Virus record (IMG/VR): IMGVR_UViG_3300025669_002431
DNA: 64,000 bases
Source of the DNA: a virus
Reading direction: 5' to 3' (one strand)
A program made the translations under genes and the position numbers. The notes beneath the pieces were generated by a model. That model saw nothing but the letters and a program-made list of their open reading frames with translations, made no database searches and was not told the DNA's origin. Below, piece by piece: positions 3,868 to 58,635 of the stretch (the first letter of the stretch is position 1; each line of letters opens with the position of its first letter).

Positions 3868-3943
3868 TGGTGGGGAGAGGCCGAGTCGAACGGCCATCTC
3901 TGGTTTTTCAGACCAGCGCTAAGACCCCATCAGCTACCTCCCC
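3868..3943 (-). tRNA. tRNA-Phe (anticodon GAA)
   Basis: Acceptor GGGGAGG, anticodon arm CTGGT-CTGAAAA-ACCAG, T-arm GGCCG-TTCGACT-CGGCC, 3' ACCA. Confidence 0.75.
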
Positions 3944-3994: not shown

Positions 3995-4085
3995 AAGATA
4001 AACTATATGGGATTTGAACCCACATTTCCGGATTGCGGTCCGGTGCCCTACCAATTAGACGAATAGCCGCTATACATATTGTCTC
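3995..4085 (-). pseudogene. degenerate tRNA-like sequence (pseudo-tRNA)
   Basis: Has a T-arm GTGGG-TTCAAAT-CCCAT and a D-loop AATTGGTA motif. Acceptor and anticodon stems do not pair canonically and no CCA is present. Confidence 0.35.
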
Positions 4086-4509: not shown

Positions 4510-4935
4510 TTAATAATCATCACTCATTTCTATAAATGTTGTGTACCACCAAGCTAATACTTTCTTGGCTTTGTCTTCATCACGAGGATCAAACTGAAGC
4601 TCGTATTCACAATCTAAAAATCGGGGATTATATGTTGGGCTCATTTCTTCATATTCCATATCAACTAATATATTTATATCATGATATGCACAATTTACTC
4701 TTCCCTCTATTATTTTTAAGATAGAAGTATAATTAAATCCTTCTCTGGCAAAATTCTGCATTGATGTGGCTGTACCATCATATAATACAGGAGACCTATC
4801 TCTAGCCTCCAGTAATTTTCCTCTTAAGTGGAGTATCTTCAAATAAAAATTCAAACGTTGTTTTTTAATTATACTTAGCATGTGTACTTTAGACATTAAC
4901 TCCCACTCAATGTCTCTCTTAGATAAATTCACCAT
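4510..4935 (-). CDS. hypothetical protein
   Basis: 141-aa minus-strand ORF. Its start overlaps the upstream stop (ATGA), suggesting translational coupling. Confidence 0.4.
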   Translation of the reverse strand: MVNLSKRDIEWELMSKVHMLSIIKKQRLNFYLKILHLRGKLLEARDRSPVLYDGTATSMQNFAREGFNYTSILKIIEGRVNCAYHDINILVDMEYEEMSPTYNPRFLDCEYELQFDPRDEDKAKKVLAWWYTTFIEMSDDY

Positions 4936-5474
4936 TAATCTGTCAACATTCTCTGAAGTAGGGTAGTAGCTTCACATCTACCTACAGGAGTAGCCAATTC
5001 TTCACCAGTAAAGAACTTGTCGCCTTGATTCACTCTCGTGATAGTATCACTTGACTTTCTAAGAACTTCTATCCATTTTCCATAATCCTCACCATACATA
5101 TCTTCTTTTAAGGATTCTAACCACTGTAAAAACTCTTCATAAGTTTCTGGAAGAACTCCTACAAATTCACCATCATCTGCATAACCATAACAACCAATGC
5201 CAGCCATCAATTTAATTGTTACATCGTCCTCTGCCCATGGTGGAGACATCACAAGACAGAATACAGAATTTTGAGGACCACTCTTTGCAAATATTTCATT
5301 ACCACCCATTGTTATATGTCCAGTACCCATAGTAAGGGATGCTTCTCCAGATTTAATATGGACATAATTTTTATAAATCTCTACATCTGTTTTACCATCA
5401 TCTAATGATATACTACCATTGGTAGACTTATGATTTTCGTCTATTGATAAAAGATCCCAATTAGATAAAGCCAT
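4935..5474 (-). CDS. hypothetical protein
   Basis: 179-aa minus-strand ORF with an RBS. No recognisable motif. Confidence 0.4.
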   Translation of the reverse strand: MALSNWDLLSIDENHKSTNGSISLDDGKTDVEIYKNYVHIKSGEASLTMGTGHITMGGNEIFAKSGPQNSVFCLVMSPPWAEDDVTIKLMAGIGCYGYADDGEFVGVLPETYEEFLQWLESLKEDMYGEDYGKWIEVLRKSSDTITRVNQGDKFFTGEELATPVGRCEATTLLQRMLTD

Positions 5475-5486
5475 TTTAATACCTTT

Positions 5487-5984
5487 CTACATAGCAAAGC
5501 AATCGGAACACTCGTCTTCAGTATCTTTGATTACTTTTTTGATATGTTGGTTTGCCAATTCAATTTGGCTATCTATATGCCTGATAATCTCAAGGTGATC
5601 GAACGCAATATCATTTAATGGAATTTCGTTTCCATCGACGAGATCTACTGGATCAACCCAGCGTAGTTCTGATGCATCATCTCCTGCTTCCCAATTGTAA
5701 TCTTTAGGGTCAATCATTACGCAGTGAACTATTGTTATAGCATGCCCTCTTGGATCACGTAATGGTGTACCGACAGTAGTGTATTGATCTTTATAAGTAA
5801 ATTTAATAGCTGCACCAGTTTCTTCTAGTACTTCTCTCGAAATTGCTTCATGTAGGTCTTCACCTTCATCTACAAACCCACCAGGAAGAGCCCACTTACC
5901 ATGTTCAGTTTCACCCTTTCTCTTGACCATCAACACCCTAAGTCTATCAACTGAATCAAATATTACTGCATCTACTGTAACCAT
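5487..5984 (-). CDS. NUDIX hydrolase
   Basis: Nudix box GGFVDEGEDLHEAISREVLEETGA. The start is probably MVTVDAV (5984) rather than the ORF-track Met at 6065. Confidence 0.85.
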   Translation of the reverse strand: MVTVDAVIFDSVDRLRVLMVKRKGETEHGKWALPGGFVDEGEDLHEAISREVLEETGAAIKFTYKDQYTTVGTPLRDPRGHAITIVHCVMIDPKDYNWEAGDDASELRWVDPVDLVDGNEIPLNDIAFDHLEIIRHIDSQIELANQHIKKVIKDTEDECSDCFAM

Positions 5985-6330
5985 AGGTCTCGGATAATCG
6001 TAGTGGAATCCGCCCAATAATTGGCCGACGCACTGGGATTCGCTCACCCCCCATCCTGATCTCATCTCGCGTAGGTCTTGGGGATCTACCTATTGTTGGT
6101 TGCCAATCATCATCTAGTCCTGTCTCCTCAGGCTCATCAACATCATCACTAATATCTTCAGATACCTCTTCAATAGTAAGCAGTTCATATTCTTTAAATC
6201 TATGAGTATGTCCGCTACCCATTCTAACAACATTATGACTTTCTCTTTTCTCAATAGATTCAATGCTATTACAGTTTATATATTTTGTAGGTTCTTCTTC
6301 CTCTACTTTAAACCACCAACCATTTCCCAT
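5956..6330 (-). CDS. hypothetical acidic protein
   Basis: 124-aa ORF with an Asp/Glu-rich middle. The 3' end overlaps the alternative NUDIX start. Confidence 0.35.
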
Positions 6331-6667
6331 CTCTGTATTCCTCTACAATAATGTTGCTTGGACTCATTGATGCATCAACCTTTTTCTCAATTTCTGCCAT
6401 AGTAACTGCCTGACGAGATACAGTAATGTGCACCCAGTCTTTAAACTTTTTACTTTCACCTAATCTTTTGAATGCTATTTTCTTATTAGCATGTTGTGAC
6501 CGTTGATTCTGGGCCACTGCAACTGCTCCACTTGGAGGATGAGTTATTCTTACAGCGCTATCTGTTTTATTTCTATGCTGTCCTCCAGGACCACTACCAC
6601 GAAATGTATCAATTACAAAATCTTTTTTTGTGAGAGTAAGGACTTTCTTTCTGACCTTAGTATGCAC
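6308..6667 (-). CDS. arfB: ArfB/ICT1-like peptidyl-tRNA hydrolase (class-I release factor GGQ domain)
   Basis: [20 protein letters not shown] closely matches the GGQ motif region of E. coli ArfB (YaeJ). Small size (119 aa). Confidence 0.78.
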
Positions 6668-6669
6668 AT

Positions 6670-7053
6670 CTATCCCTTTATTGTTTTATGAAACGTCTTT
6701 TCATCCCATACAAATGGTACTAAAAACGAACCAGGAATCATCTCTTGCATATATCTTGAACCTGCTGGATTCAATGAATGTATAATTACTTTAGCATCAA
6801 CTGGATTCTTATTTATATATCTAGCAACCTCAGCACCTGTATTTGTTTCAGCACTATTTACAAATACTTGATCACCTAGGTCATGATCACCTAGGTCATG
6901 ATCTAGTAATATTAAATCATATTCTTTTTCTTTTAATAGACGAATTGCTTCTCTAGCAGTATCTACATATTCACCGACCCAACCATGCTCTAGTATTCTT
7001 TGTTTAAATTGTCTAATTCTATTACTGTTGTCTTCTAAAACCAATACTTTCAT
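6670..7053 (-). CDS. stand-alone response-regulator receiver (CheY-like REC) domain
   Basis: MKVLVLEDN...[12 protein letters not shown] matches the CheY fold and acidic pocket. Contains a [10 protein letters not shown] tandem duplication. Confidence 0.8.
6870..6899. repeat. 15-bp perfect in-frame tandem duplication (gatcacctaggtcat x2) inside the REC gene
   Basis: Visible directly in the sequence. It duplicates DHDLG immediately after the predicted phospho-acceptor Asp. Confidence 0.9.
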
Positions 7054-7073: not shown

Positions 7074-7102
7074 GGAGAGGAAGACATAACACCTCCCTCT
7101 CC
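7074..7102 (-). terminator. GC-rich hairpin downstream of the MVP-like gene
   Basis: Stem GGAGAGG / CCTCTCC lies between the MVP stop (7123) and the REC RBS. The U-tract is weak. Confidence 0.3.
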
Positions 7103-22940: not shown

Positions 22941-23252
22941 CTAAGTTGTAACTAAGACTTCTTCTTTCTTATCTTCATCTGCTATAGGAGCAAATGCTTC
23001 TGCACCATGTGCAAAATATTTGACTAGGTTCTCAGCTGTTTGAGGAATTGTGAAATATTTTCCTTTTGGTAAAAATACCTTACATGTGGGTCTACCTTTA
23101 TCCATGCCATTGTCTACTATGTTCTCAATATGTAAAATATTTATTACTACTATTTTTCCATTAATATCTGTGAGAGTTATTAGAAATCGTTTAATTGAAT
23201 TATCTATTACATCTTGAAAAAGCCTAAATGCTTCCTGTTGTGTCAATGACAA
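22941..23252 (-). CDS. hypothetical protein
   Basis: 103-aa minus-strand ORF. Confidence 0.3.
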   Translation of the reverse strand: MSLTQQEAFRLFQDVIDNSIKRFLITLTDINGKIVVINILHIENIVDNGMDKGRPTCKVFLPKGKYFTIPQTAENLVKYFAHGAEAFAPIADEDKKEEVLVTT

Positions 23253-23913
23253 CTTTCTTCTCCTTCTTTGCTATGTTTGTAGGTTTCCATTTTTTTGACC
23301 AATGAATATCAGTTTGTACATGATTTTCTCTGACGAACTTTCCAATATTCAATTGAAATTCTGAGAATGGAAATGCTGAATAAGACCTCACAACTACTCC
23401 TTCTTTCGGTCCTCCGAACATAGAAGGGTATTTCATCTGTTCTAATATAAGTCCCTTTAATTGGTTCTCATCTTTTACGAATCCCTCATATAATACCGGA
23501 GGAGTAGGAACATTCAACATTGTAGCATAATTGGATATTACATCCCAGCTTAAAAATACATTATTTTCTACTACAGATAACAAGAATAAGAAGTGAGGTA
23601 AAGACGTATATTCTATACTATGAATTGCATACATATTTTCAAAGTAAAACCATAAATTACTATAATCTCCTTCACATCCAAATGTTTTACCAGCCCAATT
23701 TTTTACTATGTTGAATGATGGATGAGTTGCTTTTCCACCGCGAGATCTAGCATACACTTCGCAGTCCACTATCCCTGTATTAGATCCATCCATCTTTTCT
23801 GTAATTATTATTTTTCTTCCAATAAATGGAGCAGATGATACTAGTTTCCTATTTGGATTTCCAGGAGAAAATGGTAGCCTCAACGTCCTAGGATATTTGT
23901 CTATGTTAATCAT
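23224..23913 (-). CDS. ATP-dependent RNA ligase (RNA_ligase/Rnl5-DRB0094-like nucleotidyltransferase)
   Basis: Motif I ITEKMDGSN (KxDG), motif IV KEGVVVRS, motif V KFVREN. Size and spacing fit minimal RNA ligases. Confidence 0.6.
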   Translation of the reverse strand: MINIDKYPRTLRLPFSPGNPNRKLVSSAPFIGRKIIITEKMDGSNTGIVDCEVYARSRGGKATHPSFNIVKNWAGKTFGCEGDYSNLWFYFENMYAIHSIEYTSLPHFLFLLSVVENNVFLSWDVISNYATMLNVPTPPVLYEGFVKDENQLKGLILEQMKYPSMFGGPKEGVVVRSYSAFPFSEFQLNIGKFVRENHVQTDIHWSKKWKPTNIAKKEKKVVIDTTGSI

Positions 23914-32246: not shown

Positions 32247-32963
32247 TTATGTCCGAAGCCAACACCAAGTTACACTCTCTCGTATGCGATGAGATATCGA
32301 GTCTAAACATTTGATTCTTGCATCTCCAATTTTTCCTTCTGCATAATAATGCCAATGCCCACAATATATTAAACTGGGTTTATTTTCTTGTACTATATAT
32401 GATAACGCCTCTCTAGACGGATCTTCTACTTCAATACAATCATCTAATGGTGTAAATTCAGTAGGGGTAGTATGACAGATTAAAATGTCTATTTTTTCTT
32501 TTGTCAATTTAACTAGATCCATGTAACTGATAGTTTCTTCTGGAAACCAATCATGTCCTAGTATTCTTATATCTGCGTCAATTGATGTAGCACCACCCAT
32601 AAATAATACATTTCTTCCATCTGGAAGATATAGGACAGTATTTCTTGGAGCATAAAAAATATTTTTCTCAACCTCTAAGTCGCCTATTTTTAAACTATTG
32701 AGTCCCCACCAGTGTTCATGGTTTCCGCCACAGAATACAATTTCTGCACCGCGAAGATTTATAGCACTCATAGGAGGACCACCAAAATAATCAGTTTGTG
32801 GCCAGTATCCGAAATCACCGACTTGAAGTATTAATCTGGGTCTTTCTTGTTTTATTAGTTTGTTGAGCATTGGCCAATGACCGTGAACATCTCCAACAAT
32901 CATTATCCCATCACTTATATCTGTCCTAAAAATTGTTCTGCCTAGATCATTAGAGATCTTCAT
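32247..32963 (-). CDS. calcineurin-like metallophosphoesterase
   Basis: MPP motifs GDVHG, VGDFG, GGNHE and a His-rich C-terminus. Confidence 0.8.
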   Translation of the reverse strand: MKISNDLGRTIFRTDISDGIMIVGDVHGHWPMLNKLIKQERPRLILQVGDFGYWPQTDYFGGPPMSAINLRGAEIVFCGGNHEHWWGLNSLKIGDLEVEKNIFYAPRNTVLYLPDGRNVLFMGGATSIDADIRILGHDWFPEETISYMDLVKLTKEKIDILICHTTPTEFTPLDDCIEVEDPSREALSYIVQENKPSLIYCGHWHYYAEGKIGDARIKCLDSISHRIRESVTWCWLRT

Positions 32964-36184: not shown

Positions 36185-37128
36185 TAGTTTACCTTCCTAT
36201 TCAGAACCTTTAAGGCTTTCTTTATTGAGCCTAAAGGAACTGAGTTTGTTGCTGTGTCAATATTTAATGTGTATAATTTGTAAGGAAAATATCGAGTATA
36301 TTCTTTGATTTTATTCATCATAATACAACGATCCCAACCTAGTATTTCTCCAGCTAACCACATAGGACCACTGTTTATTCCAATGAAGTATTTACACTCT
36401 GCTATTTTATTCATCATGTCTATAATAGTTCCCCCTGATTCCCTCATGGTATTTCCATTCATCCATTTAGGAATAGGTTGGACACAATAATGTGGCAGCA
36501 TAGGAACATTCATATGAATTTCAAATGGATCATATCCCATCGCTTTAACATCATTCCATACTATTTCGGGACCACCATCCATTAAACTTTTTTTACTATA
36601 AGCAGTATTACCAATGAAATGAATGCCCACCATATTAGAATTTTTAACAGGTTTTATTTTAGGTCTCCAGTTACCCCAATCAACATCTAATCCAAATTCT
36701 AATTTCGCTACATTTTGAAACTTCTTCAGCTTAGAATTCATGGGCTGTTCTGGAAACTTTAAAACAAATATATAATCATATTCTTTAATATATGAACTAT
36801 CATATTTTTCTTTAAATGTATCTTTGAATACAGAAGGTCTATCGTGTTTTCCTTTTGTCTTATTTAAAATCACAATATCTTCGTGTAATCCTTTGACTTG
36901 GATCATGGGGTGACAACCTATATTGAACTCCCAATTAGGATATTTTTTCTTAAGTACTTCATATATCTGGAAGAACATTATGAAGTCGCCAAGCCCATGA
37001 TCGAAAACAAAGAGAGCTTTCCCTGATTTTTTCCTGTTAAGATAAGAACAGACAGTGGCTCTCTTTGAAACTATATTCTCTATTAGCATATTATTTCCAA
37101 ACGTCGGCGTCTTCCTCACTTGTTTCAT
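36184..37128 (-). CDS. putative glycosyltransferase (GT9/heptosyltransferase-like N-terminus)
   Basis: ALFVFDHGLGDFIMFFQIYEVLKKKYPNWEFNI resembles the GT9 signature. Weak. Confidence 0.35.
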   Translation of the reverse strand: MKQVRKTPTFGNNMLIENIVSKRATVCSYLNRKKSGKALFVFDHGLGDFIMFFQIYEVLKKKYPNWEFNIGCHPMIQVKGLHEDIVILNKTKGKHDRPSVFKDTFKEKYDSSYIKEYDYIFVLKFPEQPMNSKLKKFQNVAKLEFGLDVDWGNWRPKIKPVKNSNMVGIHFIGNTAYSKKSLMDGGPEIVWNDVKAMGYDPFEIHMNVPMLPHYCVQPIPKWMNGNTMRESGGTIIDMMNKIAECKYFIGINSGPMWLAGEILGWDRCIMMNKIKEYTRYFPYKLYTLNIDTATNSVPLGSIKKALKVLNRKVN

Positions 37129-39376
37129 ACTGTTCTATTATCTCAGTTCTAAGCACGTCCTCTACATCATTATCCCATGCTTTTCTAAATTCAGCATTTT
37201 CTCTGTAATATTTAATCGCTTCCTTCTGTCTAAACTTCTGAGTAGGATACGATTCTAATGTACACCAAGCGGCAGCTTTAATTCTTTTTGTTCTCTTTAG
37301 TAGTTCATAATTTGTCCAGAAGTTTGAGAAGCCTCTTTCGAAACTAACTATCATGGATATGTCAATGTTTGGAGAAAATAACTTATTCTTTACAGCCTTT
37401 CCTGTGAGCTTAACTCCATTGAATCCATACTCTCCTGCTACATCTCCAGTAGGCCTGAAGAAAAAAAGTTGTGTAGATGCGAATAGATTAGCATTACCTC
37501 CTGGAATATTATACGCTCCAAGAAATTTTAGTTTATTAAATCCTTTGAATTTACCAACCTGCATACTATCTCTAAGTTGATTCAGAGCGAACAAACATAT
37601 ATTATAATTTGCCATCTTATCAGAATATTTTTTAAGATATTTAGTAAGGGCACTTGCTTGTATACTTAATTGTTCTGTATTAGTTGTTACCTCAGCTTCA
37701 GTAGGAGTACTCGCTATACTATCCCATACTATAATGGATGGTACATCTAGTATATCTTTGTGTTCTTCCTTATATGCACATAACCCCTCAACGATTGAGA
37801 ATACCTTTTCGATTGTAATTCCATTTTGTGGATTTATCTCTGGATATTTAACTCCAAGATCTGTAAGTCTTTTTTTAGTAGTTGTATTTTCTGAATCTAA
37901 GTATACTGATATAAATTTTCCAGGCCATTTCCTTTGACCCGAAGATATAACCTTCGCAGCCAATGTAGAGTTATGAGTAACTATGAACTCGTCAGTTATA
38001 TATGACCCATTTGGATTATTAACTTCTATGCACTGAGCTTCTGATTTTTCAACAAACTTAACCGATTTTATACATTTCGTTATGGTTCTTTTTCTTATAT
38101 TTGATAATAACTTTGATTTTTCTTTTACTCTTACTGGGGGAAAACAATTTGGTAGGTTTATATCTAGTTGAAATGATTTAAAAATATTCCCATTATATTT
38201 TGTTTTTTTATTATATATTTTTATTCTTCCTCCCAATGATCTAATTATAAATGCTACGTCATCTATCAATCGTTTAGATATTGAATAAAAACACATTCTA
38301 TTTGTTTTTTCTATAGATCCATCAGTATCACATAACCCTTGTAAGATTGATAATCTATCATCAATTGAACTAAATTTATATGAATCTGGTATAAATTTAT
38401 CTTTAGAACTTTTTCCCAATAATCCTAATTCATTTAAAATAACTTTCATCTCATTGCGTAAAATATCTTTTTTGCCTTGACCTCTTCTATTCATTCTATT
38501 AAATATATATCCGTATTTTGAGCCATTAATTACCTCTAATTTTATATTATCTGGGAGGGTTTTTTCACAAATATTTATAATTTCTTTATATTTATCAGAT
38601 ACTGTAAGAGATATTTTATCATTTCGACTATACATAGATCCATCTCCCAAAAGGCACCCCAATAAATATGGGTCAATCGGTAAATTATTTTTATCAAAAT
38701 TAATAGCATTATTAACAGGTATGGTCCATTTTTTATCGCTAGTATGTTGGTTATTTATATCTTCAAAAATCTCTTCTAATCGTCTAACTTTAAATTCTGA
38801 TTTATAATCTTTTTTACATATCCAAAGATGGTCTAACGTGGATCTAGCTTTGGTTCCGTCGGTAAATTTTATTTCATATATATCCTTTTCCCCCTGTGGA
38901 GATACATTTGTAATATTACAAATTTCCCCTCTAGAATCAAATACATTATTTCCTATTTTCATTTCTCCCATAGTCTTCCAACCACTAGGTGTTAAAATTT
39001 TAGAATACAATGGTTGTGCTTTTCCACAACCAGGAGGCCCAACAAATTGTACTAATCCTGTCGAGACTCCTCCACCAAGTACAGTATCCAATAGATCTAT
39101 ACCAGTAGGAATAGTTGTCTTATTTTCTTTTGATTCAGTAAAGTCATATCCTTTTTTAAGGAAAGAAGAAAAGTCTTCAAATAAGTCTTTAGATTTTTCT
39201 AATTCACCTTCTGTCAGCTTGACATCCGAATATTTACTAGTTATTAATGTATCTTCTTCTATTGATGCTGCCGCTTCCGTTGGGACCTGAGGTAGCAAAG
39301 TTTTCTTTTTCTTTTTCTCCTGCACTGCAGGAATTGATTCTTCTTCAACAAGTTTATCCATTATCTTCCTTTCCAA
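37091..39376 (-). CDS. RecA/UvsX-family recombinase interrupted by a LAGLIDADG intein in the Walker A loop
   Basis: The extein reads LGGGVSTGLVQFVGPPGCGK-STLAAKVIS...VYLDSE, a RecA-like P-loop. The insert has LAGLIDADG motifs (LLGCLLGDGSM, LQGLCDTDGSIE) and ends THN|S. Confidence 0.7.
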   Translation of the reverse strand: MERKIMDKLVEEESIPAVQEKKKKKTLLPQVPTEAAASIEEDTLITSKYSDVKLTEGELEKSKDLFEDFSSFLKKGYDFTESKENKTTIPTGIDLLDTVLGGGVSTGLVQFVGPPGCGKAQPLYSKILTPSGWKTMGEMKIGNNVFDSRGEICNITNVSPQGEKDIYEIKFTDGTKARSTLDHLWICKKDYKSEFKVRRLEEIFEDINNQHTSDKKWTIPVNNAINFDKNNLPIDPYLLGCLLGDGSMYSRNDKISLTVSDKYKEIINICEKTLPDNIKLEVINGSKYGYIFNRMNRRGQGKKDILRNEMKVILNELGLLGKSSKDKFIPDSYKFSSIDDRLSILQGLCDTDGSIEKTNRMCFYSISKRLIDDVAFIIRSLGGRIKIYNKKTKYNGNIFKSFQLDINLPNCFPPVRVKEKSKLLSNIRKRTITKCIKSVKFVEKSEAQCIEVNNPNGSYITDEFIVTHNSTLAAKVISSGQRKWPGKFISVYLDSENTTTKKRLTDLGVKYPEINPQNGITIEKVFSIVEGLCAYKEEHKDILDVPSIIVWDSIASTPTEAEVTTNTEQLSIQASALTKYLKKYSDKMANYNICLFALNQLRDSMQVGKFKGFNKLKFLGAYNIPGGNANLFASTQLFFFRPTGDVAGEYGFNGVKLTGKAVKNKLFSPNIDISMIVSFERGFSNFWTNYELLKRTKRIKAAAWCTLESYPTQKFRQKEAIKYYRENAEFRKAWDNDVEDVLRTEIIEQYETSEEDADVWK
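37970..39019 (-). mobile_element. intein with LAGLIDADG homing endonuclease (in the RecA-like gene)
   Basis: About 350 aa with block A-like ILTPSGWKTM..., two LAGLIDADG motifs and C-terminal ...IVTHN followed by Ser. Confidence 0.6.
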
Positions 39377-41132: not shown

Positions 41133-42029
41133 TTATTTCTTTCCTATTTTAGAACATTTCCAACCATTTTTATGGCTTTTCTGTCGACCGAATGCCACAT
41201 GATTCATTCCAACTACGTTTAAATTATTTTCTTCACAAAATTTAGATAAGTTATCTACAATATATATTTTTCCAGTTGGATCAATTATTTTATATTTATT
41301 TTTTGTTCCATATGTATTTCCTTTATTAATATCAGATATTTTGTTCCTTAACTCATCATTATTCCATGCAGATTTTATCTTGTTTTTGTGTTCTAATCTC
41401 TTTTCATCACTTCTATTTTTCCAAATTTCTGTCTGTATTTTGGATATCTTTTTCTTTACTTCAGGTCTATTTAGAGAATCAGTAATTTCTTTTATTCTTT
41501 TACTTCTATTTTCTTCAATAGACCAAAAATTCTTTAAACCTCTAGAAACTTTTTCTTTATATTCTTTGTTTTTATTTAACTCAGTAAAAATTTTACTATG
41601 GTTTTTTCTTCTCTCTTTTGACCATTTTTGATTTATTGGTGTCTCTCCACCATCTGTTAAATTTGTGAGAGGACCATTTCCTAAATCATATCTGCCTATA
41701 TTTTTTATTATATGTTTTTCTTCATTAAATGCATTTAATTTATTCATCTCAATTTTTAATTTAATTATAATAGGTTCAAGATCATACCTAAAAATCTTTC
41801 TAATTTTGTTAAGTTTTAATTGGTTTCTTTTAGAAAAACATCGACTTGCTTCAGATAGATGGGATTTATATCTCCGACCATGACCTGCGCCAACATAAAA
41901 TGGTTCATATAATAATCCAAATCCCAAATTAGGATAAACATATTTTCCAGGTTTTCGGGGATCTAGATAAATATATACATAATAATTATTTTGATTTTTT
42001 TTCTTTTTGTTTTTTGGAGTGGAGGGCAT
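41133..42029 (-). CDS. GIY-YIG homing endonuclease
   Basis: GIY-YIG core YYVYIYLDP...FYVGAGHGRRYKSH followed by Lys-rich NUMOD-like DNA-binding repeats. Confidence 0.78.
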   Translation of the reverse strand: MPSTPKNKKKKNQNNYYVYIYLDPRKPGKYVYPNLGFGLLYEPFYVGAGHGRRYKSHLSEASRCFSKRNQLKLNKIRKIFRYDLEPIIIKLKIEMNKLNAFNEEKHIIKNIGRYDLGNGPLTNLTDGGETPINQKWSKERRKNHSKIFTELNKNKEYKEKVSRGLKNFWSIEENRSKRIKEITDSLNRPEVKKKISKIQTEIWKNRSDEKRLEHKNKIKSAWNNDELRNKISDINKGNTYGTKNKYKIIDPTGKIYIVDNLSKFCEENNLNVVGMNHVAFGRQKSHKNGWKCSKIGKK

Positions 42030-43050
42030 AAATTAAATTTCCTGTTGCTACAGCCGCTAATGGGTCTTTTGCTCTTCTTATATCAGAGACATTATATGGG
42101 AATATATCTCTATAGTTTTCATCGAAAACTTTTGTAAAACATTCTATAAACCCATTGGGTAAAGATGTTCCACCCGATACAATGATCGGAATATCTTCTC
42201 CTATTTCGAGAGCATCAGAAGATTTTTCAAATTCTTTACAAAATGTTTTTAATATATATTCTATCATATCTTTATAGAAGAAAACCAGACACTCTAATGC
42301 TCGTTTCTCTGCTTTTTTCTTTGATATAATAGGATTATCTAAATCTAATTTACTCTCTTTTAATCTTGTAACTCTACTTACAGGAACATTAATAGAATCA
42401 GACACTTGTTTATCAATCCAGTCTCCTCCTCTCTTGATAGCAAATGCTAGACTCATAATTCCTCTGTAAGAAAACGCTACATTAATTAAACCACATCCAC
42501 AACTGATCCCTATTCCGCTAAAGTTCGTATCTGCACACTCTGAAAAAATTATCCCCATTCCTTCATTTAAAGGTTTAGCATCATATCCGATAGAATCTAA
42601 AACCTTTGAGAACACCTGTTCATGATACAGCACAGGAGGATTGTCAGCGTCTACTGTGTCTGCTGGCACTGAGTATACACAATAGCCTCTTTGTCCCTTA
42701 GGAGGCGTTTTGACTAGCTTCTTAGCCATCACAGTGAGTATATCTATAGCATCTATGTCCTTGCTGGAGATGACGCCTCCTTCCATAGGACGTCTTGGAG
42801 TAATACCAAATATCTGGGAAAATCTAAAACAATCTTCACCAATAATAAAGACTCTTTCCACATCGTCCTCATTACTAACTATGTAATCTAAATCTGTATT
42901 TTCTAATTCTTCTATTGCTATAACATCAGTATCAATCTCTGAGAACATATTTCTTACTGTATTTATAGTAATTTTACCTTCAGTTGCCTGACAGGCGGAA
43001 ACTTGATTCATTGTACCTAAATCATACCCATAATAATGTTTTATATCCAT
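41986..43050 (-). CDS. actin-fold ATPase (ParM/MreB/FtsA-like)
   Basis: ASKHA motifs: phosphate-1 YGYDLGTMNQVSA, phosphate-2 GIGISCGCGLINVAF, adenosine IIVSGGTSLPNGF. Confidence 0.6.
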   Translation of the reverse strand: MDIKHYYGYDLGTMNQVSACQATEGKITINTVRNMFSEIDTDVIAIEELENTDLDYIVSNEDDVERVFIIGEDCFRFSQIFGITPRRPMEGGVISSKDIDAIDILTVMAKKLVKTPPKGQRGYCVYSVPADTVDADNPPVLYHEQVFSKVLDSIGYDAKPLNEGMGIIFSECADTNFSGIGISCGCGLINVAFSYRGIMSLAFAIKRGGDWIDKQVSDSINVPVSRVTRLKESKLDLDNPIISKKKAEKRALECLVFFYKDMIEYILKTFCKEFEKSSDALEIGEDIPIIVSGGTSLPNGFIECFTKVFDENYRDIFPYNVSDIRRAKDPLAAVATGNLIYALHSKKQKEKKSK

Positions 43051-47267: not shown

Positions 47268-47714
47268 CTAATCTTTCTCTGGTCTTGCTTTTATAAATAA
47301 CCAGGACTTCCCCGACCTCGGATTCTTCTTTATTCTTTTTCTATCTTGACTAACAAAAGCCGGAGGCCGTATTAAAGTAAATTTTCCATCCATAATAGGA
47401 CCTTCTACTACAAATGTAATATGAAACTTTCCCCATCCCCTAAGCTCAATCATTCCCTTCTGTAGTACCTTAACTATTCCCTCTCCAAACTCCCCTTTAG
47501 GAATTACATAGTGGTCAGCTTTAAGCCACCACATATCATGGTCGTGTCCTTGCATAGCTAAAGTTTTTTCATGAACGTCAGGAATTCTATGTTTAGGAAG
47601 TGCCCAAGAAGCTACACTTAATCTATTAGGATATTTAATTCTAAGATCATAGTGATGCTTTGCTCGTCCCATACTATAATGATCGTGTAAAATATATGGT
47701 AAAAATCTAGCCAT
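47268..47714 (-). CDS. LigD-type 3'-phosphoesterase (PE) domain protein
   Basis: AKHHYDLRIKYPNRLSVASWALPKHRIP...GHDHDMWWLKADHYVIPKGEFGEGIVKV...GWGKFHITF matches the LigD PE signature. Confidence 0.75.
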   Translation of the reverse strand: MARFLPYILHDHYSMGRAKHHYDLRIKYPNRLSVASWALPKHRIPDVHEKTLAMQGHDHDMWWLKADHYVIPKGEFGEGIVKVLQKGMIELRGWGKFHITFVVEGPIMDGKFTLIRPPAFVSQDRKRIKKNPRSGKSWLFIKARPEKD

Positions 47715-55404: not shown

Positions 55405-58400
55405 CTATTTTTTAATTTCACAACTACCATTATCGCAGAATTTTAGCGTTTCTTTTGATTCTATCTCTTCTTCTTTAGTCATTTTTATCTTCGATAATTT
55501 TAAAGGTTTTAGGGTTGATATATATAATTCATATTTTTCTTTTGTAATTTCTTCATATGGCATTTGTTTATATGATTTCACATCAAGAGGTAAAAATGAT
55601 ACAGCTTTTATTTTGTCTTCATATACTTCTAACACATCTTTAATCGAATTAGATTCATTTTCGTTAAATGTTACAGTCTGTGATACACCATTATCAGACC
55701 AATAGTGTTGTATATCTGCGTGAAGAGCCATTTGTTCCCATATAGTAATATCTCTCTTGGATTTAAAGAAATTTTTAGTTCTTATTGGAAATTCAAAAAT
55801 CCACGAATTTTTTTTATAATAAGACTGCTCTTTTTTATATCCGGCAATTTCTAGTGGTTTAATAAAAGGAGAGTTTTTTTGAAATTCTATTCTTCGAATA
55901 TAATATTCTGAGTGTGGAAAATGAATACCCGGATTACTTCCTGGTAATAATGATACAGTATTATGACTTTTTATACCTCCGGAATAATACCAATGATCTT
56001 TATCGACTTCTAAATCATACGTTTCTTCATACCCTTCTAATTCATGTACACTTACTACTTTACCTAAAATTAAAACATTTTGAGATTCAGTCAGACACTT
56101 AAATGATATATCATGTGGTGGATTTCGCATGTCATTTATTTTTATTAATTTATTGGATGTTTTTAATAATACATGGAGAGAATTAATATCTGTGTGGGAA
56201 TTTAATGTTAAATTCCATATATGTTTAATTTCTTGTTTGTTCTCCCCTTCTGTATTCAAAGATCTTCCAAAACATAATCCAACAGAAAATCCAACTTCTT
56301 GTATATTTTTTGCAAAATTATCATAGGCGGTTGAAATACATATTCCCACATCGCCGTCACGAACAAATACACAACCATCCGAATCAATTAATCCCGAAAT
56401 AAATGCTAAAATATTTTCTTTAGATGATTCTCTTACAATTCTTGGAATTACCGATATATTGCCCTGTTCATCATATTTAGTTATTCCATTAATATTCCAA
56501 AAGTCCCAAAGATGCCGAGACCCAATTTCAAGCACAAACGCGTTTCTATCTTGACTTGCAGGTTTTATATTAGAGTCTAATCCAAATAAATCATATATTA
56601 TTTTTTTTGCTTTTTCCAGATTATATTTATTCTCATCTATAAATCTAGTTCTAAATTTATGTCTACTCAAACAACCGTCTCCATATAAATATCCTATAAT
56701 CCAAGCAAGATCATTATTCATATATTCAGGTTGAGTTATAATATTTCCACGAGCACCAATAAAAGTATCTGGTATTGCTGAATGGGATAGTTTTGAACAA
56801 ATATTTTTTCTATAAGAATTCATACTAATATGAATAATATCGCCAGCTCGAACATCATTGGCACATATCCATTTGTTGACGTCTATTCTCTTATATCCTC
56901 CTTTTTCACTACTAGCATTCATATGTTCACTAACAAACACCATATGATTCGGGGTGCATTCAAAATCTAAATTGTAGTTCATTTTAATTTTAATTATTTT
57001 AGAAGTACTATTTCTATATGTTCTTAATATTTTATTTTTACTATTTTTCTGGTATACATAACTATCACTGTGATCGTTGTTCCACTCCAAATCTTCAGGA
57101 TGTTCTTCTAATAATTCATCTAGAGATAAAATCCCTCTATCTGTCGAAGTTAACGATCTACCCGGTCTACAACCACTCGGTTTTGTCGTAGTTACTTTTA
57201 TACTTTTCGGTACACATAACCACCTAGAATATAATTTATCCAGTTTTCTAATATTATTATATCCAGAATCACAAAACTCATTAAGAAACCTACGTCTACC
57301 AAATTTATAAATAGCATCTGTTATTCCTGACATAGATAACCCAATTCTTCTATTTCTAAGCATAACTTGATTTGTGCGTTCATCATGAGATGGTACTAAT
57401 GTAACACTTTTAGCTAAAAGATAAGCATATTTAAGAGTTTCTAAAAATTCTTCTTCGTTTTCATGATTAGCTGGAAATGTTTCACACAATAAACACATTT
57501 CATATTTTGATAGTGACATTTCAGCACAGGGATTTAATCCACAAACTCCCTCATCTTCCCATTTCTCTCCATCTTTTATCCTCCCATACTTTCTCATATT
57601 ATCTAAATACACTATTCCTGGTTCACCGTTATTAATAATGTGCTTGGTTAATTGTGTATAATCTGCACCAACTTCAGCAAATACTGAATTGTTTGAATTC
57701 CATCTCCAATCCTTTAATTCCTTTTCATATTTCTCAGGATTTTTCATATTCAAAAAATCAATATCATCATATTCTCCTATTGCTATTTCACTAGACCTTC
57801 TTTGTCCACCGCTTACTACACATTTCCCAACTATATTGAAAATATCAACTATATTTACAGATGTAATATATTTATCTACACATTTATTAAGAACCAGTTT
57901 TATCTCTTCTATACATAATTTTAATGGACCTGGTCCGGGAGCAATGCCTCCAAATGTTTTTATAAAACTTCCGTTAGGTCTTATTTTACTAAAATCAAAT
58001 TCTCTGGGCATTTTTGATTTATGAACATAAGAGTTTAATACTACTTCCACAGCATCTCTCCAACCTTCTCTACTATCATCTATAGTAAAAACATAATCTC
58101 CAACCTTAGGTTCTTGAATTTTAACTTTTCCTGCCCCTTTTAGATCGAATCCGCACCCTACCCCCAATAAAGCAACGTCCATTAACCAACAAAAAGGTCC
58201 ACTAAAATCATAATGTAGATCTTCAGTGGAACAAAATCCACAATTTAATAAAACAGCTACTCCTTTTTTCCAAACAACATCTTCTCCAAGGGTCCACAAC
58301 ATTCTCCCTGGAGGAAGAAATTTAAAATTCCACATCAACTCAAACATTTTTTGAGCAGATTTCTGTGCTTTATGTGCATTCCAATACAATCTTAAATTTT

Positions 58401-58635
58401 TACAATGATTTAGTTGAATTGTATAACATCCTTCCACTACTCGTTTGAGAGTCTCCCAAAATTCTTCATATCTATCTTCTTTTTCAATATATCGACTATA
58501 CGTTCTTTTATATGTAATAGCTCCAACTGGTCCCCAATTAGGTTGCTCGTTTGTATATTGATCTAAAAAATTCTCTGTCAAATTAAACTTTTCCCTGATT
58601 GGAAAAACCCAATCACTCATGTCAACTTTTGTCAT
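55405..58635 (-). CDS. nrdJ: class II (adenosylcobalamin-type, monomeric RTPR-like) ribonucleotide reductase interrupted by a LAGLIDADG intein
   Basis: Active-site GLNPCAEMSL...CLLCETF (N-x-C-x-E). C-terminal redox pair FCDNGSC (C-x4-C). The extein is about 700 aa. The insert has block B ECTPNHMVFV, LAGLIDADG motifs (IGYLYGDGCL, ISGLIDSDGCV) and ends SHN|T. Confidence 0.7.
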   Translation of the reverse strand: MTKVDMSDWVFPIREKFNLTENFLDQYTNEQPNWGPVGAITYKRTYSRYIEKEDRYEEFWETLKRVVEGCYTIQLNHCKNLRLYWNAHKAQKSAQKMFELMWNFKFLPPGRMLWTLGEDVVWKKGVAVLLNCGFCSTEDLHYDFSGPFCWLMDVALLGVGCGFDLKGAGKVKIQEPKVGDYVFTIDDSREGWRDAVEVVLNSYVHKSKMPREFDFSKIRPNGSFIKTFGGIAPGPGPLKLCIEEIKLVLNKCVDKYITSVNIVDIFNIVGKCVVSGGQRRSSEIAIGEYDDIDFLNMKNPEKYEKELKDWRWNSNNSVFAEVGADYTQLTKHIINNGEPGIVYLDNMRKYGRIKDGEKWEDEGVCGLNPCAEMSLSKYEMCLLCETFPANHENEEEFLETLKYAYLLAKSVTLVPSHDERTNQVMLRNRRIGLSMSGITDAIYKFGRRRFLNEFCDSGYNNIRKLDKLYSRWLCVPKSIKVTTTKPSGCRPGRSLTSTDRGILSLDELLEEHPEDLEWNNDHSDSYVYQKNSKNKILRTYRNSTSKIIKIKMNYNLDFECTPNHMVFVSEHMNASSEKGGYKRIDVNKWICANDVRAGDIIHISMNSYRKNICSKLSHSAIPDTFIGARGNIITQPEYMNNDLAWIIGYLYGDGCLSRHKFRTRFIDENKYNLEKAKKIIYDLFGLDSNIKPASQDRNAFVLEIGSRHLWDFWNINGITKYDEQGNISVIPRIVRESSKENILAFISGLIDSDGCVFVRDGDVGICISTAYDNFAKNIQEVGFSVGLCFGRSLNTEGENKQEIKHIWNLTLNSHTDINSLHVLLKTSNKLIKINDMRNPPHDISFKCLTESQNVLILGKVVSVHELEGYEETYDLEVDKDHWYYSGGIKSHNTVSLLPGSNPGIHFPHSEYYIRRIEFQKNSPFIKPLEIAGYKKEQSYYKKNSWIFEFPIRTKNFFKSKRDITIWEQMALHADIQHYWSDNGVSQTVTFNENESNSIKDVLEVYEDKIKAVSFLPLDVKSYKQMPYEEITKEKYELYISTLKPLKLSKIKMTKEEEIESKETLKFCDNGSCEIKK
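55960..57156 (-). mobile_element. intein with LAGLIDADG homing endonuclease (in the RNR gene)
   Basis: About 399 aa, SLTSTDRGIL... to ...YYSGGIKSHN. Blocks A, B, C/E, F and G are recognisable. Confidence 0.6.

Follow-up and report, generated by a model that had tools for sequence, protein, structure and literature searches.

We analyzed a 64,000-nucleotide stretch of viral DNA (IMG/VR record IMGVR_UViG_3300025669_002431; hereafter, the window) that carries, on the minus strand at 6308–6667, a gene for a 119-residue protein with the GGQ motif of peptide chain release factors (RFs). We refer to these as the GGQ gene and the GGQ protein. Our preferred reading, to which we assign a probability of roughly 0.55, is that the product is a stand-alone, codon-independent peptidyl-tRNA hydrolase that derives from domain 3 of a class-I RF, lacks every known sensor element, and recycles stalled ribosomes during infection. 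To our knowledge, every characterized stand-alone GGQ rescue factor senses the ribosome's problem, be it through the tail of ArfB/ICT1, the decoding-center domain of PrfH, the tail of PrfH-CT or, in the case of mtRF-R, with a partner. None of these sensors is found in the family of the phage protein, which counts at least 575 confirmed viral loci in IMG/VR, yet the family's catalytic core is intact and its genes cluster with phage tRNA genes. It is this sensor-less architecture and tRNA-array association, and not the presence of the gene, that make the protein of interest. If active, it would reveal how a minimal GGQ domain is targeted, or that kinetic competition suffices, and it would add a protein component to the view of phage tRNA arrays as a means of sustaining translation against tRNA loss.

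The GGQ gene and its relatives among release-factor domains

The GGQ gene corresponds to an open reading frame (ORF) that occupies exactly 6308–6667 on the minus strand, with a GTG start codon at 6667 and its stop codon at 6308–6310. The catalytic motif is encoded by GGA GGA CAG at 6578–6586 (minus; residues 28–30) and falls within the peptide quoted in the initial annotation of this DNA (residues 24–43). Pfam RF-1 (PF00472; gathering cutoff, 35 bits) matches residues 10–71 at 78.6 bits (E = 4.4e-22), and PHROG 3122 matches over its full length, with residues 5–117 placed on profile positions 20–128 of 136 (114.4 bits, E = 8e-33). Judging by these scores, the match is far from chance and the ORF is a true gene; the ORF list and both profile libraries thereby bear out the initial annotation insofar as it placed a GGQ-bearing ORF here. 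The identical 119-residue protein was additionally called on seven contigs in public assemblies, the five displayed coming from five separate samples.

Which GGQ family the protein resembles was assessed by profile, sequence, and fold. Against NCBIfam models, it scored 81.1 bits for PrfH, 76.7 for RF2, 73.6 for RF1, and 37.5 for ArfB; the corresponding equivalog cutoffs are 166.65 bits for PrfH, 370–423 for RF1/RF2, and 100 for ArfB. A search of the PDB with a profile of 81 family sequences yielded RF1 (81 bits), RF2 (79), PrfH (67), C12orf65 (54.5), ArfB (~40), and ICT1 (~25). Foldseek, queried with an AlphaFold2 model of the protein, returned domain 3 of RF2, RF1, and mtRF1 as best matches, followed by PrfH and C12orf65; the 50 matches listed include neither ArfB nor ICT1 chains. 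The closest relatives by sequence and fold are domain 3 of RF1/RF2/mtRF1 and PrfH, and every measure used places ArfB and ICT1 furthest away among GGQ proteins. With only hydrolytic factors among the best matches and the GGQ conserved, nothing points to the non-hydrolytic family or the degraded glutamine context that the initial annotation had named as grounds for giving up a hydrolase assignment.

The likeness to domain 3 of RF1/RF2 and mtRF1/mtRF1a lies in the best sequence, profile, and fold matches, in the same short β2–β3 hairpin, and in conserved residues that flank the GGQ. However, class-I RF models score only 68–77 bits and match at approximately profile positions 209–281. The 119-residue protein is not an RF1 or RF2, for it lacks domains 1, 2, and 4 and, with them, stop-codon recognition (the PxT or SPF motif) and interaction with RF3.

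PrfH (also RFH) is the top NCBIfam match and gives the longest alignment, which continues through the helices beyond the GGQ core (query residues 11–97 to PrfH 102–186). In PrfH, an N-terminal domain, like domains 2/4 of the RFs, recognizes the damaged decoding center, and the operon partner is RtcB2. The phage protein differs in lacking both: it is ~80 residues shorter, it begins ~10 residues ahead of its GGQ domain, which leaves no room for an N-terminal recognition domain, and it matches only positions 102–186 of the 200-position PrfH profile, at less than half of the cutoff. Moreover, no RtcB is present among the families listed for the window ORFs scanned with profile libraries, the listing of one of these scans covering 25 of its 27 families. 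With the recognition domain and the RtcB neighbor both missing, we do not consider the protein a PrfH; a PrfH-like, conflict-related role in rescue is plausible for it.

A further comparison is offered by a family of truncated RFs of 133–140 residues (for example, P0086, P0092, and P0109), the GGQ cores of which are 66% identical to the phage family at the profile level. These keep the RF domain-4 segment (RTYHEPxDRVTDH) through to the RF C terminus, whereas the phage protein has an unrelated helix/hairpin module in its place. Together with P0094–P0099 and others, they consist of RF domains 3 and 4 only, that is, the GGQ core and the RTYHEPxDRVTDH segment without domains 1 and 2.

The initial annotation had assigned the protein to the ArfB/ICT1 type and had proposed an alignment to ArfB/ICT1 models and a search for a basic C-terminal tail as checks. 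Two hallmarks set ArfB and ICT1 apart: an insert (α-i/3-10 helix) between β2 and β3, where RFs have a six-residue turn, and a flexible, basic linker and tail at the C terminus, which bind in the mRNA entry channel and are needed for activity (PMC3950681). A factor of this type would use its tail to probe the empty entry channel of non-stop ribosomes and so position the GGQ domain. The phage protein resembles ArfB (YaeJ) and ICT1 (mL62) in that it is a stand-alone GGQ protein of similar size, without codon-reading domains and codon-independent by architecture, and the ArfB model does match weakly over the motif. This match, however, is confined to residues 8–42 and remains well below the cutoff, as do those of five further family members (22.8–39.9 bits). 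Aligned by hhalign, the family and ArfB correspond over query residues 12–72 only, with a gap of ~24 residues needed for the ArfB insert, and nothing in the phage family aligns to the ArfB tail. The spacing from GGQ to RSQ is 25 in 76 of the 81 family members and in RF1, as compared with 49 in ArfB. Likewise, the last 40 residues carry a net charge of −1, versus +13 in E. coli ArfB (comparison sequence verified against PDB 4v95; identical across 140 residues); across the 81 members this value averages −2.0 and peaks at +3, with none at +5 or above. The C terminus is also predicted to be folded, not disordered. An ArfB-type factor is thus already contradicted by two defining features, and we give it very little credence. 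What stands of the initial label is a GGQ protein of the hydrolytic RF superfamily that lacks codon-reading domains; its score, insert, and tail do not agree with the ArfB/ICT1 type. For annotation, this means that PHROG 3122-type genes should carry neither ArfB nor RF1 labels.

Protein architecture and a proposed mode of action

The AlphaFold2 model, built from the 81-sequence alignment, is confident (mean predicted local distance difference test score, pLDDT, of 91) and divides the protein into two parts. The GGQ (RF domain 3) core, which we place at residues 10–72 (6452–6640, minus) from the Pfam match, the model, and an RF1 alignment, comprises strands at 18–22, 38–43, and 48–52 followed by a helix at 58–71, with a short RF-type β2–β3 hairpin and without the ArfB/ICT1 insert. 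After residue 72, the helix equivalent to α7 breaks and the chain folds back into a compact module, the C-terminal extension (residues 73–119; 6311–6451, minus), delimited from the model and the family alignment. This extension is predicted to contain helices at 73–86 and 89–100 and a β hairpin at 109–118; it fits the family consensus IExxVxxxMxxxNLKxE...GxW, and F75 and W78 are almost invariant in the 81 relatives. Profile alignments of the family to ArfB and to the truncated RFs end at approximately residues 72–80, with no match further toward the C terminus, and the module is specific to the PHROG 3122-type family. Overall, the protein has a net charge of +12 and is thus basic, with the charge sitting in the N terminus and core helices.

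The GGQ is kept in 80 of the 81 aligned members, the single exception reading GPSGQ; G29 and Q30 never vary, and conservation of G28 is at least 90%. Every position conserved in RFs is likewise kept in the phage protein (D16, G26, G28-G29-Q30, N33, K34, R40, H43, S57-Q58, N61-K62, and A65), and 34 of 59 core residues (58%) are identical to the aligned RF1 fragment. Such identity is also what a functionless remnant of a captured host prfA or prfB fragment might display. A remnant is difficult to reconcile with a family that is large and diverse yet uniform in length (103–130 residues; median, 120), in which the catalytic residues are invariant and a novel C-terminal module is conserved, or with the confidently modeled structure. 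This alternative is already very unlikely, and we accord it next to no weight.

The architecture includes no known sensor: there is no codon reader, no ArfB-type tail, and no PrfH-type decoding-center domain. Since the modeled protein is compact, we infer that it cannot reach the decoding center from the peptidyl-transferase center. In the mechanism that we favor, the ancestral codon-reading domains were lost and the compact, conserved, non-basic C-terminal module, organized around its nearly invariant aromatics, took the place of sensors. The small basic protein would bind the ribosome by entering the vacant A site of the large subunit and would place its GGQ in the peptidyl-transferase center, as RFs do. 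There, it would hydrolyze peptidyl-tRNA without regard to the codon and thus free ribosomes stuck with an empty A site during infection. Ribosomes may come to such a halt on truncated mRNAs, or at hungry codons once tRNAs have been depleted or cleaved. In place of a sensor, the C-terminal module may confer selectivity, as may slow kinetics relative to the ternary complex or action on split 50S subunits like that of mtRF-R. The activity of the protein would be complementary to the tRNA genes that the phage itself encodes.

Action on split subunits could also be the protein's sole purpose, as in a large-subunit specialist like mtRF-R (C12orf65), which hydrolyzes peptidyl-tRNA on the split 50S and has no need of a decoding-center sensor. 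The phage protein shares with C12orf65 an RF-type GGQ domain without the ICT1 insert and the absence of any 30S-directed sensor; its similarity to C12orf65 is intermediate, exceeding that to ArfB and ICT1, with a profile alignment that runs over positions 5–110. On the other hand, what similarity there is past the core is helical and low in information, and the C terminus is not basic. The basic helical C-terminal extension of C12orf65 and its partnership with MTRES1 on split large subunits are not seen for the phage protein, and no MTRES1-like or other partner emerged among conserved neighbors near the family loci. We do not class the protein as a C12orf65/mtRF-R and view a dedicated large-subunit function as unlikely, although deserving of some weight.

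Family distribution and proximity to tRNA arrays

By sequence, the GGQ protein is a new, divergent member of PHROG 3122, a family already annotated as 'RF-1 domain peptide chain release factor'; its closest database protein is at most 68% identical. The family comprises 1340 proteins at E ≤ 1e-5, many encoded on contigs of 60–190 kb, and the genomes that carry it range from 25% to 66% GC. BFVD holds further small phage RF-1-domain proteins of 64–194 residues. Family members occur in 206 Mycobacterium phage records, essentially all Bxz1-type cluster C myoviruses, and the annotation in use there is 'RF-1 (domain) peptide chain release factor' (PMC9583779). Mycobacteriophage members such as Bxz1 gp200 share the size and architecture of the GGQ protein and are 48%–50% identical to it over residues 16–117, C-terminal extension included. 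Host range and genome are nonetheless far apart: the window has a GC content of 34%, and a DNA-level search found no close relative among known phages. The neighbors differ too, with DNA polymerase and UvsX beside gp200 and predicted RNA-end and nucleotide enzymes (cREC and NUDIX, described below) beside the GGQ gene.

Proximity to tRNA genes recurs across the family. We surveyed 78 non-redundant GGQ loci with flanks of up to 10 kb per side and found at least one tRNA in 30 and at least five in 20, with several GGQ genes lying inside arrays of 30–41 tRNAs. The kilobase that adjoins the GGQ gene has the highest tRNA density, 0.59 per kb, and the density declines to ~0.14 per kb at 10 kb; 308 of the 340 flanking tRNAs are co-oriented with the gene. 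A tRNA lies within 500 bp of the GGQ gene in 17 loci, as compared with 6.9 expected by random gene placement in the same loci (P ~1.5e-5). The family is enriched beside phage tRNA arrays. Other translation- and RNA-related genes also appear: one locus (L020) has a tmRNA at 4735–5124, 5 kb upstream of the GGQ gene, and another (L011) has PTH2 and PNKP nearby. An RF-1-domain hypothetical gene has been listed, independently, as the core coding sequence of Mycobacterium G1 tRNA arrays, with a link to rescue suggested (PMC5966550). As a separate observation, suppressor-like tRNAs lie close to the GGQ gene in two loci (L031, 11050–11125, anticodon CTA; L069, 5926–6000, anticodon TTA).

The initial annotation had proposed that the purpose of the gene is to counter PrrC-, RloC-, VapC-, or Cas13-type nucleases; this is plausible, and the sole new support for it is the statistical tie of the family to phage tRNA arrays. 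More tentatively, the family may constitute a distinct class of rescue factor that operates without a 30S-directed sensor, in which the C-terminal module selects substrates in a new manner (for example, 50S-bound peptidyl-tRNA or hungry-codon ribosomes) and which phages have spread packaged with tRNA arrays, so that translation can continue despite the depletion or cleavage of host tRNAs. We consider this a possibility, but not a probable one.

The same genomic settings bear on a contrasting proposal, namely that the protein is a tool of host takeover whose promiscuous release activity aborts host translation, or strips ribosomes from phage-degraded host mRNAs and hands them to phage messages. 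Several phages have the gene among early or replication-type genes (DNA polymerase, primase, and RecA/UvsX), and the protein has no element that would restrict it to aberrant complexes. It equally has no means of distinguishing host from phage translation, and its association with tRNA arrays, tmRNA, and PTH2 speaks for a role in supporting translation, not in blocking it. A role in takeover accordingly strikes us as improbable.

Several points weigh against a codon-independent rescue hydrolase. ArfB deprived of its tail is inactive (PMC3950681), so a tail-less GGQ domain might bind the 70S ribosome poorly, and the energy for binding would have to come from the new module or a partner. Without a sensor, a factor also risks releasing peptides from actively translating ribosomes. 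No conserved protein partner of the GGQ gene was found, either by tblastn of 85 loci or in a Pfam scan of neighbors. In the former, all 96 window proteins were compared with 85 other GGQ loci and recovered no cREC, one NUDIX, and one RNA ligase; the remaining matches were the GGQ gene itself and scattered homing-endonuclease and replication genes. In the latter, no family appeared in more than two of 149 immediate neighbors. Elsewhere, the gene is found beside DNA polymerase III, methylase, and primase genes, or RecA, or terminase, and in Bxz1 it sits between the DNA polymerase and UvsX genes. Approximately 60% of loci lack any tRNA within 10 kb. In addition, accessory genes of any kind tend to accumulate in tRNA regions, and the association between the GGQ gene and tRNAs could therefore be inflated. 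Finally, literature searches for functional work on phage GGQ/RF-1-domain proteins gave only genome announcements and one tRNA-array survey, with no experiment on any member found, and surveys of release factors and of jumbo phages by the Aravind group contain no discussion of this family.

The local gene unit and wider features of the window

The genes of the window all lie on the minus strand. Around the GGQ gene, their order is RNA ligase, small ORF, tRNA-Asp, hydrolase, GNAT acetyltransferase, major-vault-protein-like (MVP-like) gene, hairpin, cREC, and GGQ gene, followed by an acidic 124-residue ORF, NUDIX, two uncharacterized ORFs, GroES, two tRNAs, and NAD-dependent DNA ligase. Directly upstream of the GGQ gene, cREC (cyclic-phosphate-processing receiver domain; 6670–7053, minus) encodes 127 residues and matches Pfam cREC_REC at 55.4 bits. 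Its TAG stop codon is 2 nt from the GGQ start, and a Shine-Dalgarno-like AGGGA motif (6673–6677, minus) is found within its 3′ end, 5 nt upstream of the GTG; from this arrangement the junction looks translationally coupled. A terminator-like hairpin with a 13-bp stem (7074–7102, minus) lies between the MVP-like gene and cREC and is probably the 5′ boundary of a unit made up of cREC, the GGQ gene, the 124-residue ORF, and NUDIX. The 124-residue ORF (ORF124; 5956–6330, minus) contains a strongly acidic stretch and shares 23 nt with the end of the GGQ gene and 29 nt with the start of NUDIX; neither Pfam nor PHROG gives a match for it, and it has no homolog near the GGQ genes of the 85 other loci. 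The NUDIX hydrolase gene (5487–5984, minus; 165-residue call) matches Pfam NUDIX at 72 bits.

This arrangement raises the possibility of a repair-coupled release factor akin to PrfH–RtcB2, in which cREC, RNA ligases, and perhaps the MVP-like protein as a scaffold heal tRNA or rRNA cut by nucleases, with the GGQ protein clearing the blocked ribosome. The predicted function of cREC in 2′,3′-cyclic-phosphate processing, and its link to RNA ligases in phages (PMC7824862), make such a pairing of rescue and repair tempting, as do the tight cREC–GGQ junction, the alignment to PrfH, and the presence on the same strand of two RNA ligases, phosphoesterases, and a NUDIX gene. It is countered by the absence from the protein of the PrfH recognition domain, with a score of 81 against a cutoff of 167 bits, by the lack of RtcB among the families listed for the scanned window ORFs, and by the lack of a conserved neighbor of any kind. 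Most directly, the pairing does not recur: no cREC is present within 10 kb of the GGQ gene in the 85 other loci, none of three cREC homologs on other contigs, those of closest context, has an RF-1 neighbor, and IMG/VR contains no close relatives of this cREC. We rejected cREC–GGQ as a conserved system on these grounds and treat the pairing as a lineage-specific arrangement particular to this phage. Coupling to repair as the function of the GGQ protein is, in our estimation, rather unlikely.

Two genes of this region have features of their own. Within cREC, 6871–6900 (minus) is a perfect 15-bp tandem duplication (two copies of catgacctaggtgat) that encodes residues beside the acidic pocket of the receiver domain; the closest homologs have 121–124 residues and are thus 3–6 residues shorter than the 127 found here. 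The MVP-like ORF (7123–9867, minus) encodes 914 residues that match MVP_shoulder at 97 bits and Vault_3 at 40 bits, with weak similarity to SPFH/Band-7 and no PHROG match. An MVP-like protein is unusual in a phage, as is its position adjoining predicted NAD/ADP-ribose and RNA-end-processing enzymes.

The wider setting invoked by the initial annotation, with RNA ligases, a 3′-phosphoesterase, and a large set of tRNAs, was recovered, and the phage is one that invests in translation and RNA repair. An RNA ligase with RNA_ligase and PHA02142 OB domains is encoded at 11658–12746 (minus) and a second RNA-ligase-family gene lies at 23224–23913 (minus). Pfam LigD_N has a match among the window ORFs (E = 6e-15), and a probable LigD-type 3′-phosphoesterase was assigned to 47268–47714 (minus) by its HHYDLRI motif only; a calcineurin-like phosphoesterase is found at 32247–32963 (minus). 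ARAGORN and Rfam together identify 10–11 tRNA genes. Those nearest to the GGQ gene are co-oriented with it: downstream, tRNA-Phe (3868–3943, minus) and a second tRNA (3999–4069, minus) that Rfam finds and ARAGORN misses, and upstream, tRNA-Asp (11258–11332, minus). ARAGORN also reports a tRNA-Tyr with the unusual anticodon ATA (14952–15030, minus), and a further tRNA-Tyr (675–763, minus) that overlaps ORFs and is not confirmed by Rfam. We considered reassignment of stop codons and set it aside, since the ORFs of the window are long and uninterrupted when read in the standard code, and no suppressor tRNA occurs in it.

That the gene is carried by a phage, as first proposed, is supported by PHROG matches to a virion structural protein, a tail-fiber-like protein, and homing endonucleases, and by the one-strand gene order and the tRNAs; no terminase or capsid gene is present in the window. 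Elsewhere, a 354-residue ORF (41986–43050, minus) matches Pfam Volactin at 209 bits over its full length. Volactin is an actin-family protein described from archaea, and by sequence the ORF looks like a phage-encoded actin-like cytoskeletal protein. A RecA-like gene (37091–39376, minus) is interrupted by a LAGLIDADG domain that is probably an intein, and a ribonucleotide reductase of 1076 residues (55405–58635, minus) has its PHROG match in two stretches. Many homing endonucleases, of HNH, GIY-YIG, and other types, are scattered through the window.

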